Below, one piece after another: positions 48,416 to 51,523 of a stretch of 64,000 bases of DNA. The stretch lies in NCBI GenBank assembly GCA_012813795.1, contig GCA_012813795.1_4087.1; one strand, written 5' to 3'. Within the stretch, counting starts at the first letter, position 1; the number at the start of each line of letters is the position of its first letter. The position numbers and the translations under genes are program-made. This DNA comes from a phage. The notes beneath the pieces are model-generated. The model saw nothing but the letters and a program-made list of their open reading frames with translations. It was not told where the DNA came from and made no database searches.

Positions 48416-48871
48416 TTATATAGATTCCTTTCTGTAATGATTTTGAATTCCAATCCGGTTATTCTTACAAAATTCCATAGCATAAGCCCACTTAGCCTGA
48501 TTAATGGCTACAGTGATCTTATCTTTTTTAGATTTTGCTAGTTCCATATGGCATTGTTTATACGGTTTAACTTCAAGTACTTGAGCATGTTGTTTACCAT
48601 CAGCACCAATATAAAGCACATAAAAATCAGGCCAATACATGTGTTGGTGATTATCGACCGGATTAATATAAGGAATACTAAATGGTTCAATACTCCATTC
48701 AATAACTGCTGGATTATTATCAAGGGAAATCATAATATCTTTTTCCCAAGAACTGCGATAAATTGGTTGGTTATTACTCTTGTACTTATGTATATTTTTT
48801 ATTGGAAATATACCTTGTGCTTGTTTACTGTTAGTAATTTTCGCTGGGTTAAATGATTGATTGAATGCCAT
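48416..48871 (-). CDS. putative PD-(D/E)xK-type nuclease-fold protein
   Basis: 151 aa; YWPDFYVLY...QVLEVKP gives a PD...(E)xK arrangement typical of restriction-endonuclease-like nucleases; ATG overlaps the stop of the upstream tube-fold gene. Confidence 0.4.
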
Positions 48872-49965
48872 TAGAAATCTCCTAGAATATTACCAAGCCC
48901 AAATTTAGAGCTTGCTTCTGATACTACACTACCAAACCCGATAGCATTAGCACCTCTGGTCACAGCAGCACCGATGTTACGGATAGTATCAGGTGTAATA
49001 TCACCACGTAGGATATCTCTGGTACTGGAGATTATATCACTAACTGCTGTTCCGGCTCGAATTATTTTACCTACTGTTAAAATTCCTTTGGTTTTGTCAT
49101 CAAGTTCACCAAAGTACTTGAAGAACCCACTCACACCTAGTCCTTCGGTGTTAGTAATCAACTGTGCAATCTCCATAGTTGGTACACCAATACTTAGATA
49201 CCCTTCTGGGCCGAAGTTGTTACAAGCTTCATAACGCATAGTCAATGATAACGTGGATGGTTCACCTTCACTATCCATAGATTTTGTTTCTAATTGTACG
49301 TCTTCTATGAATACATTTATCATGTTATGTACTGTGTAGGTTTCATTATCAATTTCATAGATATTAATTGATTTGAAAAAGTACTGACTATCGTAGTTAC
49401 CATTGTTCATTACTGAACGACCCCAGTTTGAACCCATAGCATCAAAGTTTTGGGGGGTACTCAACGTATCATTGCGGTATGCACCTTGTGATTTGGCAAA
49501 GAAATCGCCATAATAAAACTTACGATATGCATCCATTAGGAGATACCCAGCACCATCTACTGTATCATAGAAAACCACATTACTTGGTTTATATTCAATA
49601 TCACCAGTTATTAGACGTTTTTTGTTGTACTGATTTACGGTTTCAACATTAAAAGAAAAACTCGGTAAAGTCACATCTCGCACGAAACAAGAAATATTAT
49701 TAACATCAAAATCAGTATGTGTGTCTGGTAATTGAGTTTTAATAAAGTTCTTTGCGAATGGTGATAATACAAATTCAATAATAAAGCTATTTTTAAACTT
49801 AGGTAAATTATAAAATGAGAAACCCATTTCCCCTGCTGTACCAAACACACGTTGTGCAGCGTTATAATGTTCAAATGGTGGATCTCTTAAAATTTCGATG
49901 TTATCCATAACACCGCTGATTATGCTAGTACCAGTACTAACAAATGAATCAAAAAAATCACTCAT
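48871..49965 (-). CDS. tail tube-fold protein (possible tube initiator/cap, gp48/gp54-like)
   Basis: 364 aa; pattern resembles the tube family and the two upstream paralogs; position directly after the tube genes. Confidence 0.45.
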
Positions 49966-49975
49966 AGTACTCTCC

Positions 49976-50752
49976 TTAAAAACCTATATTACCGAATACA
50001 CGGTCAATGATATCTAGTCCTTGGTTTACTTTTTCTGGTAGTAATGAATTAATGCGAGTACTATACATTTCTTCAATATTATCAAATTGAATACAATTAT
50101 CAGGTTTAATTGTAATATCCATAGTTACTGGTGCACTAGAGCTATATTCCAATGTATCGTAACTAATATTGGTGATGATACACCCTGTAAGAACAAAGTA
50201 TTCCATTACACCAGCACTGTTATAGTTTGAGCCACCAATGAACTGATCTACTGCATTAACCAACCCACCATTATTTGTCACAGCGGTAGCAGCAGAAACA
50301 GCAGTATTTCTTGCTAAATCTTCAATGCTGTCATCAGTATTACGTCCATTTAGCATTTGAATAACCATACCAAATTTATATGAACCATAGTCCTGATCAC
50401 TTCTGGATGTAATTCGTCGTTGAAAATCTAATTGTTTTTGTAACTGTCTTGACAATGCTTTAGCACTTTCATTACCGATTGAATCACGAATTGTTAGTGT
50501 GATGGGTTCCCAGTTATGATTACCAATATATGTAGTATTGGTAGTAAAATGGTTCAACTTATGAGTACTGAATGTTACTGTTGGTCTATCAACTTTATCA
50601 ACATCTAATGCGATGTGATCACGCTCATCAATATCAGTACCGAAATTATAAACAATAACTCTAAATTTATACTTAGCTTTAGGTTGTAGCATTGTTTTAT
50701 TTCTTCCCGATGGTAATGGAACGCCATATTTACTAATCATGTTTTTTGCCAT
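49976..50752 (-). CDS. tail tube protein paralog
   Basis: 258 aa; N-terminus YGVPLPSG...QPKAKYKFRVI closely parallels the adjacent 227-aa protein (YGVPLAGG...QPKAKYKFRVI). Confidence 0.55.
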   Translation of the reverse strand: MAKNMISKYGVPLPSGRNKTMLQPKAKYKFRVIVYNFGTDIDERDHIALDVDKVDRPTVTFSTHKLNHFTTNTTYIGNHNWEPITLTIRDSIGNESAKALSRQLQKQLDFQRRITSRSDQDYGSYKFGMVIQMLNGRNTDDSIEDLARNTAVSAATAVTNNGGLVNAVDQFIGGSNYNSAGVMEYFVLTGCIITNISYDTLEYSSSAPVTMDITIKPDNCIQFDNIEEMYSTRINSLLPEKVNQGLDIIDRVFGNIGF

Positions 50753-50800
50753 AGCAACCTCTTTTAATTTAAGGTATTATACTTTATTTAGCATAAAAAA

Positions 50801-50832
50801 AGCCCCGAAATAGTTTCGAGGCTTTAGAAGTA
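50801..50832 (-). terminator. rho-independent terminator between the two tail tube paralogs
   Basis: Minus strand hairpin (one mismatch) followed by TTTTTTTAT. Confidence 0.6.
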
Positions 50833-50839
50833 TCTTTAA

Positions 50840-51523
50840 TTAATCAAAGAAGTTTGTATCAGGTAGTGTAGTACTACTAATGTTGGTTTGTGCACCACTA
50901 ATAGAAGATGCAGTACTTGGGTTACCGAAACCAGTAACTTCATCACCGAATGCTTCACCGTTTGGACCCAACTTAGCACAACCATCTGGTTGAACACTCA
51001 TTGTAATAACTTGTGCTTCGCTTGAAGAGTAATCCCAATCACCAAAGTTGCTGGATTCAATAAAGCAACCCTGACAAACCCAAGTACTTAGAGTACCTTC
51101 AAAAAGGTTTGTTGCATTTTCGCTGTTAGAACCATCTAGTTCTTGAATCCACATTTCAAATTTAAACTGGGAATCAGTCATACGAGATTCTTGACTATAG
51201 TAGTTGAATTCTTTACGCATTTGGTTGTAAAGTGCTTTTGCTGAAGCATTACCAACTGAATCACGGAAAGCAACTTCAATCGCATCCCAAGTATATTTGC
51301 CTTTATAGTGTGCGGAACTGTTATAACTATGAACAGTTACGTTTTCATGCGATACTGATACTGCACCAACAGTGTTAGTATCTAGTGTAATCATGTTGCC
51401 ATCATCATTGGCACCAAAACCAAAGAAAATTACACGGAATTTATATTTTGCTTTTGGTTGTTTCATTGAAATACGACCACCACCAGCAAGCGGAACGCCA
51501 TATCGATCTAGCATAGTAGCCAT
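50840..51523 (-). CDS. tail tube protein
   Basis: 227 aa; T4 gp19-like pattern as recalled (W..I.V.F.D..GN.SAKALY); directly downstream of sheath on the same strand; RBS AGGAGA. Confidence 0.6.
   Translation of the reverse strand: MATMLDRYGVPLAGGGRISMKQPKAKYKFRVIFFGFGANDDGNMITLDTNTVGAVSVSHENVTVHSYNSSAHYKGKYTWDAIEVAFRDSVGNASAKALYNQMRKEFNYYSQESRMTDSQFKFEMWIQELDGSNSENATNLFEGTLSTWVCQGCFIESSNFGDWDYSSSEAQVITMSVQPDGCAKLGPNGEAFGDEVTGFGNPSTASSISGAQTNISSTTLPDTNFFD

Follow-up and report, generated by a model that had tools for sequence, protein, structure and literature searches.

The phage contig GCA_012813795.1_4087.1 (GenBank assembly GCA_012813795.1), analyzed here as a 64,000-nt stretch that we call the window, carries on its minus strand three consecutive genes, A, B and C, immediately downstream of a tail sheath gene. 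Our explanation for this arrangement, which we consider likely, is that A encodes the major tail tube protein and is transcribed as a late unit of its own, and that B and C encode tube-fold proteins which form low-copy rings and are expressed from a second late unit. Homology, fold, a conserved terminator and promoter-like boxes, codon bias and gene order are the observations from which we infer the copy numbers, ring positions and transcript boundaries proposed below. A megablast search of positions 48000-55000 against phage genomes assigns the window to an Asteriusvirus-type, Rak2-like jumbo myophage of E. coli: the closest match was Escherichia phage A4 (96.9% identity, 100% query coverage), about 35 further Asteriusvirus-type jumbo coliphages (121Q, PBECO4 and others) followed at 82-84%, and there were also matches to more distant Rak2-like phages, those of Klebsiella, Cronobacter, Pectobacterium, Yersinia, Erwinia, Serratia and Xanthomonas. 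The same three genes occur in the same order as 121Q gp552-554, RaK2 ORF042-044, CBB gp205-207 and GAP32_199-201, and in RefSeq and Pharokka-style records all three are already labelled 'tail tube protein'.

An earlier note on this DNA, made from the letters alone, had described three tube-fold paralogs downstream of the sheath gene. This description holds, as all three open reading frames (ORFs) lie on the minus strand where it had placed them (Table 1), and BLASTP, profile hidden Markov models (HMMs), hhalign and PHROGs agree on their relationship. By sequence, A and B are clear paralogs that align over their whole length (29% identity across ~230 aa, E=2e-37, BLASTP). Identity is concentrated at the N-terminus, where 24 of the first 40 aligned residues are identical as compared with 72 of 220 overall. 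This end is the best-conserved stretch, but the term 'near-identical' used in the earlier note is too strong for the 60% identity seen across those 40 residues. Gene conversion was considered as the source of the conserved N-terminus and rejected. Only about half of the residues that are identical in A and B are specified by the same codon, which argues against recent gene conversion between the two genes and for a constraint acting on the N-terminus at the protein level.

The relationship of C to the other two proteins is more distant, and in direct BLASTP comparisons it was marginal (E of 0.03 with A and 0.002 with B). Profiles brought it out clearly: the HMM of the A/B family matched C at 6.8e-9, the HMM of the C family found B (2.3e-5) and A (2.7e-4), and hhalign aligned the two families with 98.5% probability (E=3.6e-15, 173 columns). 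The C family is large (2017 representatives at 50% identity clustering, E<=1e-3), and on these profile comparisons it is distantly homologous to the A/B family. The A/B-family and C-family HMMs matched nothing other than A, B and C among the 151 ORFs of the window, which includes gp5-, gp6-, gp15- and gp25-like baseplate and tail genes. With regard to T4, gp19 matched phrog_4542, the PHROG to which A and B belong, at 5.3e-10, and phrog_45 (T4 gp19/gp54/gp3) was weakly matched by A (1e-3) and by C (2e-3). A Pfam scan of A, B and C gave no match to PF06841 or to any other family, C did not match phrog_230 (the gp48 family), and sequence searches of the PDB with the three proteins and both family profiles returned nothing meaningful.

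AlphaFold2 models were built for B and C from alignments of database homologs; the tube fold is assigned to A because of its homology to B. The mean predicted local distance difference test score (pLDDT) was 62 for B and 59 for C, with cores mostly at 70-90. When the B model was compared with the PDB using Foldseek only tube-type proteins were matched, at a probability of 1.0 (Pvc5, T4 gp19, Pvc1, T4 gp3, AFP, cyanophage A-1(L) and lambda gpV). The C model likewise matched only tube-type proteins (tube, Hcp and tube-end proteins), the best match being T4 gp3, for which the chain identity was confirmed. The tube protein of phiKp24 (8bfk) was a weak match, at the level of fold only. In C the tube-fold core spans approximately residues 56-272 and is followed by a tail (residues 273-364) that is rich in Gly, Ala, Ser and Ile and has very low model confidence. 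We conclude that the gp19/Hcp type of fold, a beta-sandwich or barrel with one flanking helix, is common to all three proteins. The models of B and C and the family profiles are in agreement on this shared fold, on which the earlier note had staked its proposal, and they also bear out the tube-like pattern that it had noticed in the 364-aa product of C. All three genes are in addition neighbors of the sheath gene, and their orthologs in other isolates have been found in virions by published mass spectrometry (MS).

Several observations point to A as the major tube protein. We computed the codon adaptation index (CAI) with the E. coli weights of Sharp and Li 1987 and ranked 50 genes of the window (Table 1). 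The index of A exceeded that of B and C in all seven phages compared (the window, 121Q, RaK2, GAP32, CBB, Yen9-04 and XaC1), and throughout this set A stood at or above the sheath gene and B was low. Arginine codons follow the same pattern: A and the sheath gene use CGY almost exclusively (in A, 5-6 of 6-7 Arg codons), as opposed to the mixture of AGA and CGA found in B and C. Furthermore, the single tube proteins of PA5oct (gp287) and Atu_ph07 (gp127) are 34-37% identical to A orthologs versus 25-28% to B orthologs. Published MS of RaK2 virions detected the A ortholog gp042 (5 peptides) and the B ortholog gp043 (3 peptides) but not the C ortholog; in CBB virions the A ortholog CBB_205 (6 peptides) and the C ortholog CBB_207 (9 peptides) were detected, but not B or the sheath protein. 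A is consequently the member of the trio present in both available Rak2-like virion proteomes. Taken together, codon usage, the single tubes of relatives and virion detection indicate that A is probably the major tail tube protein. B and C, in which an insertion or tails are added to the tube fold and codon adaptation is low, would probably form low-copy end rings acting as initiator or terminator. Our literature searches found no structural or functional study that assigns roles to the trio or resolves the tail in Asteriusvirus or Rak2-like phages. The authors who described RaK2 in 2013 were unable to identify its tube protein and suggested gp106 or gp107, two abundant beta-rich virion proteins, for this part (PMC3622015). 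These two were represented by 13 and 11 peptides with more than 50% coverage; the true tube-family genes of RaK2 are the sheath-adjacent gp042-044.

A further set of observations concerns the junction between A and B. The terminator that the earlier note had put at 50801-50832 is present: a hairpin with its stem at 50825..50799, followed by a run of seven T residues, largely overlaps that interval. Its minimum free energy (MFE) is -15.5 kcal/mol (z=-4.07), and none of 200 shuffled sequences was equally stable. We compared this spacer in eight phages from about five genera (the window, A4, 121Q, RaK2, GAP32, CBB, fHe-Yen9-04 and XaC1) and found a hairpin and T-run at the same position in every one. 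There are six stem sequences among the eight (A4 is the same as the window and CBB the same as GAP32), indicating that it is the structure and not the sequence that has been kept. Judged by hairpin, T-run, stability and conservation, the element qualifies as an intrinsic (rho-independent) terminator by sequence criteria. Directly after the T-run, GCTAAATA is invariant in all eight phages and is followed by TATAAT or TATA and then by the ribosome-binding site (RBS) of B.

The latter motif resembles a box found elsewhere in the window. The 5.3 kb of intergenic DNA contain 10 copies of the sequence ATAAATA, whereas 3.7+/-1.9 are expected from composition, and at least 10 copies arose in 2 of 1000 simulations; the copies observed precede structural genes, the sheath gene and A included, by 16-58 nt. 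A variant, CTAAATA, is found upstream of B and of a gp13-like gene. ATAAATA has been predicted as the late promoter of CBB and GAP32 and likened to the T4 late promoter TATAAATA (PMC5259590). As conserved A/T-rich boxes upstream of late genes, the copies described here would qualify as late promoters of the T4 type, in which a TATAAATA-like -10 box is paired with a gp55-like sigma factor, and 121Q encodes a late sigma factor, beyond the part of its genome that corresponds to the window. A two-part promoter with fixed spacing (ATAAATA-N5-TATA, one mismatch allowed) was tried and dropped, as it was not enriched (9 versus 6.3 expected). Neither TGCTAAATA nor GCTAAATA is over-represented across the whole window, and the significance we attach to both comes from their conservation across phages rather than from counts. 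A scan for sigma-70 promoters gave fewer hits than expected from shuffled sequence and was uninformative, and we found no further terminator-like sites on the minus strand 3' of B within the scanned interval 44000-56000.

A and B are on the same strand and separated by 87 nt; the stop codon of B falls within the RBS of C (TAAGGAGA), and the stop codon of C overlaps the start of a gp4-like head-completion gene in the sequence TAATG, an overlap also present in 121Q, GAP32, CBB, Yen9-04, XaC1 and Atu_ph07. The gp4-like gene is thus probably coupled translationally to C. The layout we predict comprises (i) a late promoter, the sheath gene and a terminator; (ii) a late promoter, A and a terminator; and (iii) a variant late promoter followed by B, C, the gp4-like gene and onward. 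The last of these is predicted to be a separate unit because the invariant GCTAAATA box follows the terminator of A, and A looks like an insulated single-gene unit because the sheath gene, too, has a promoter-like box and a terminator of its own. Literature searches turned up no transcriptome of an Asteriusvirus or Rak2-like phage.

Table 1. Genes and putative control elements around A, B and C, in minus-strand order (CAI, codon adaptation index; rank is among 50 window genes)
Feature	Position	Strand	Evidence or remark	CAI	CAI rank
Deoxynucleoside monophosphate (dNMP) kinase gene	54668-55294	-	upstream of sheath gene		
Late-promoter-like box ATAAATA	54624-54630	-	50 nt upstream of sheath start		
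Tail sheath gene, 887 aa	51911-54574	-	Pfam PF17482 Phage_sheath_1C 8.7e-14; phrog_10581 'tail sheath'	0.34	9/50
Terminator-like hairpin, 9-bp stem, with T-run	51883-51904	-	directly 3' of sheath stop; MFE -14.6 kcal/mol, z=-4.16		
Late-promoter-like box ATAAATA	51559-51565	-	36 nt upstream of A		
A, 227 aa, tail tube protein (probable major subunit)	50840-51523	-	phrog_4542 'tail tube' 1.7e-83	0.40	3/50
Intrinsic-terminator-like hairpin, 12-bp GC-rich stem (50825..50799), with T7 run	50792-50825	-	between A and B		
Variant late-promoter-like box GCTAAATA, then TATAAT	50785-50792	-	33 nt upstream of B		
B, 258 aa, divergent paralog of the tube protein, probably low-copy ring	49976-50752	-	phrog_4542 3.2e-78	0.23	38/50
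B-specific insertion, ~residues 141-181	50210-50332	-	two predicted helices; motif A-[ILV]-TNN-x-GL-[VT]-N-x-[VI]-D		
C, 364 aa, distant paralog with tube fold	48871-49965	-	PHROGs 'tail tube protein'	0.26	29/50
gp4-like head-completion gene, 151 aa	48416-48871	-	phrog_218 'head closure' 9e-40; Pfam Tn7_TnsA-like_N 7.2e-17		

Comparison with relatives suggests how the trio arose. B carries an insertion of ~40 aa that is missing from A, from single-copy tubes and from 209-aa marine homologs, and it also has a new helical C-terminal tail. The insertion, which was modelled with low confidence, equals the fold core in its conservation across 19 B orthologs (0.69 versus 0.66-0.71). B is 58-86% identical across about five genera, and all 90 phage records that match it over its full length carry an intact ORF. 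B is missing from PA5oct, Atu_ph07 and two metagenomic lineages; Vibrio phage 2.275.O possesses a second tube copy, which is without the insertion. B is a tube-gene duplicate specific to the Rak2-like clade. We also noted many marine proteins of 208-210 aa, from Tara and other metagenomes, that are 32-34% identical to B and do not have the insertion; some are on contigs of up to 327 kb, which suggests that uncultured large marine phages with such a tube family are abundant.

C, on the other hand, is ancient and was always found behind a tube gene. A tube gene with a C-type gene (328-496 aa) directly after it occurs in PA5oct, Atu_ph07, Vibrio phage 2.275.O and two metagenomic contigs, and we regard the pair as ancestral on comparative grounds because it is present in every related lineage examined. 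A gp4-like gene lies 3' of the C-type gene in five of six lineages; one metagenomic lineage has the pair without an adjoining gp4-like gene. Published MS found the C-type protein in the virions of CBB and PA5oct, and in PA5oct the tube protein as well. The C family was compared by hhalign with single sequences of T4 gp3, gp19, gp48, gp54 and gp2 and the result was never significant (1.7% for gp3, below 1% for gp54 and gp48), which gave no separation of initiator from terminator, and phmmer found no match to T4 gp3 among the ORFs of the window.

Some members of the C family are much longer (1100-1300 aa), with an N-terminal tube-like domain and F5/8 type C domains near the C-terminus. As informative fusions, the Pfam scan of long members found only these carbohydrate-binding domains and, in two proteins, a 'non-contractile tail sheath N-terminal' domain; one of the 1100-1300-aa proteins has both kinds, and these domains did not decide where C sits. 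In other viruses the C family may therefore carry externally displayed modules.

A likely scenario that accommodates these data is as follows. After duplication the sheath-adjacent copy (A) would have stayed near the ancestral sequence, and its sister B, which occupies the ancestral slot in front of C, would have diverged, keeping that slot and the conserved N-terminal arm while gaining a new tail at the C-terminus and the helical insertion that is now conserved. A would now be made abundantly from its own late unit, which would run from the ATAAATA box to the strong, conserved terminator, and B, C, the gp4-like gene and what follows would form a second late unit that begins at the GCTAAATA box past this terminator and makes use of translational coupling. 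During assembly, in the placement that we prefer, a hexamer of C would sit on the hub, a hexameric adaptor ring of B would sit on C, and A would polymerize on B.

The earlier note had suggested that the terminator could set the stoichiometry of the genes on its two sides. The division it had in mind, a major tube protein versus a minor initiator or cap, fits the codon usage and the single tubes of relatives, with A as the major protein and B and C as minor ones, but a simple attenuator does not, since a late-promoter-like box follows. A leaky attenuator, from which B and C would be made mainly by read-through from the A promoter in a ratio set by termination efficiency, is in our view improbable: the strength and conservation of the hairpin and the 87 nt between the two genes on one strand would suit it, but GCTAAATA with TATAAT or TATA intervenes between the terminator and the RBS of B in eight of eight phages and the motif matches the boxes of other structural genes. 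Read-through and a separate promoter can also coexist. The idea that the tube is made jointly of A and B, both of them in abundance, be it as alternating rings, mixed hexamers or two segments, or that B is the major subunit, could draw on the similar peptide counts in RaK2 virions (5 and 3), on the position of B in the ancestral tube slot right before the C-type gene and on its retention of the N-terminal arm. We consider it highly improbable given that in seven of seven phages B has low codon adaptation and A equals or exceeds the sheath gene, that CBB virions yielded A and C but not B, and that the single-copy tubes of relatives resemble A and not B; in addition, no single-copy tube has the 40-aa insertion, and if it faced outward the sheath would leave little room for it. 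That B is superfluous or in decay as a duplicate and has no role of its own is scarcely credible, for although PA5oct, Atu_ph07 and two metagenomic lineages manage without it, the ORF is intact in 90 of 90 records, shows 58-86% identity in about five genera, has an insertion conserved like the core and is represented in RaK2 virions.

The positions of the two rings are harder to settle. Given the general model of an abundant A and low-copy B and C, we put the chance that both rings lie at the baseplate end, in the order C6-B6-A, just short of even. This end is favored by analogy, because T4, PVC and phiKZ place a closer and then a more diverged relative of the tube protein between tube and hub, which is like the series A, B, C. 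To our knowledge all known contractile tails depend on a tube-fold initiator, whereas a gp3-type terminator is not required. Under the same general model it is possible, at somewhat below even, that C acts at the neck end as a terminator like gp3. The fuller form of this alternative makes C the head-proximal equivalent of T4 gp3, capping the A tube under a gp15-like hexamer, and leaves B as the sole tube-derived adaptor at either end; we think this rather unlikely. The order in T4 is 1 (dNMP kinase)-3-2-4 and that in the window is dNMP kinase-sheath-A-B-C-gp4-like, so that C, like gene 3 between genes 1 and 4, stands between the dNMP kinase and gp4-like genes and has the position of gp3. The TAATG overlap of C with the gp4-like start, which recurs in six other phages, the gp4-like gene after the C-type gene in five of six lineages, and the place of T4 gp3 as the best Foldseek match of the C model all speak for a terminator as well. 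Set against it are the equal scores of gp54 and Pvc5, the 1.7% hhalign probability with gp3, a size double that of gp3, the metagenomic lineage in which the pair has no neighboring gp4-like gene and the requirement of contractile tails for an initiator, for which no other candidate is detectable in the window.

A number of points weigh against the explanation we prefer, namely late-unit A as the tube and B and C as low-copy rings placed toward the baseplate. Gene order, through its likeness to T4 1-3-2-4 and the overlap of C with the gp4-like start, favors the neck end for C. In the structural ranking gp3, gp54 and Pvc5 fall within 0.2 Z units of one another, and initiators are not separated from terminators. 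The AlphaFold2 models are moderate in quality, with the B insertion and the C tails poorly modelled and the orientation of the insertion not readable. The CAI is a proxy, calculated with E. coli weights, and the published virion MS is qualitative, differs between RaK2 and CBB in which of A, B and C it detects and is uninformative on stoichiometry. Finally, tube-fold proteins too diverged for detection by sequence may exist elsewhere in the genome.

A further possibility, to which we give little weight, is that duplication divided two jobs of the ancestral tube gene, leaving A as a free-standing polymer subunit with high expression and B, still beside C, as a dedicated nucleation or adaptor ring. 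It would entail that the ancestral tube gene was probably coupled translationally to the C-type gene, and that the TNN-x-GL-x-N-x-D insertion of B contacts a baseplate or neck partner specific to this clade; a more radical form would have the tube itself built of A plus B. If such a division of roles were true, B would represent a new type of ring with no counterpart in the structures of T4, phiKZ or extracellular contractile injection systems (eCIS).

There is ample precedent for low-copy tube-fold proteins at the ends of a tail tube. T4 has the abundant tube protein gp19 and low-copy paralogs that start or cap the tube (gp54 and gp48 at the baseplate junction and gp3 as terminator); our models of B and C can be superposed on gp19, gp54 and gp3, and both systems show a parallel series of divergence from the tube protein to a closer and then a more distant paralog. 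Unlike gp54 and gp48, however, the trio has no membership in PF06841 or phrog_230, and its genes are clustered after the sheath gene, whereas T4 genes 48 and 54 are beside the hub genes and gene 3 is apart; sizes and decorations also differ. In the eCIS the likeness to Pvc1/Pvc5/Pvc7 of PVC and Afp1/Afp5/Afp7 of AFP is at the level of fold only (8-10% identity), and those tube proteins are ~150 aa and have neither the insertion of B nor the long tails of C; the present system is that of a T4-related jumbo phage. In the jumbo myophage phiKZ the tube protein gp30 is joined to the hub by two stacked hexameric rings, the initiator gp88 and the spacer gp182 (PMC13250141). Tube and neck chains of phiKZ were among the fold matches of the B and C models, but phiKZ proteins have no sequence relation to the trio and their genes are scattered over the genome.

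With regard to the wider setting, positions 48000-55000 are part of a large late structural cluster in which the minus-strand order is gp13-like neck gene, small ORF, dNMP kinase, sheath, A, B, C and gp4-like head-completion gene; the sheath gene is orthologous to 121Q gp551 and RaK2 gp041. The dNMP kinase gene sits amid neck and tail genes (54668-56396, minus strand), an echo of the T4 order 1-3-2-4, and no homolog of gp2, the DNA end protector, was detectable in the window. The Tn7_TnsA-like_N match of the gp4-like 'head completion' protein corresponds to a nuclease-type fold. The highest E. coli CAI values in the window belong to two other minus-strand genes, 41866-43191 (441 aa, 0.48) and 40379-41854 (491 aa, 0.43), which by position are 121Q_563 ('ATPase') and 121Q_564 ('HNH endonuclease / Zn-dependent hydrolase'); such values are surprisingly high for genes annotated in this way.

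The spacer between the sheath gene and A is 387 nt long (51524-51910, minus strand). The terminator that follows the sheath gene is a perfect palindrome, AAGGGAACCATATGGTTCCCTT, so that its stem scored on both strands; the T-run belongs to the minus-strand copy only. The spacer also holds an ORF of 48 aa running from 51826 down to 51680 (MEEILKKTLQDV...), and a protein-like reading goes on in another frame (...KWSVGVNYTDHKQEKKYLYCVNIDWFPVDEILQ*); the ORF may be a frameshifted or decaying small gene. The corresponding spacer has a 56-aa ORF in A4 and a 134-aa gene in Yersinia phage fHe-Yen9-04, and in RaK2 and GAP32 measures only ~110-120 nt. The interval between sheath and tube genes is a hotspot for insertion: PA5oct has a Hef-like homing endonuclease there (4287-5903 of the locus examined), and in Vibrio phage 2.275.O a gene for a pectin-lyase fold and a reverse-strand gene lie between the two tube copies (2945-5827 of the locus examined).

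The 'tail tube protein' labels of the trio in related phages were already known, and T4, phiKZ and eCIS provide well-documented cases of low-copy paralogs with a tube fold at the ends of the tube; what we see here is a further case of this well-known design and not a new kind of system. What our analysis would add is the assignment of A as the probable major tube protein, the conserved junction of terminator and promoter-like box that is predicted to insulate A, and the recognition of B as a specialized duplicate. For the Rak2/121Q group of jumbo phages, whose records call all three proteins by the same name, this is a reasoned assignment of the major tube that would be useful in fitting cryo-electron microscopy maps of their tails. 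It also offers an example of how a phage may set very unequal copy numbers of paralogous structural proteins, by means of separate late units, a terminator and codon bias.

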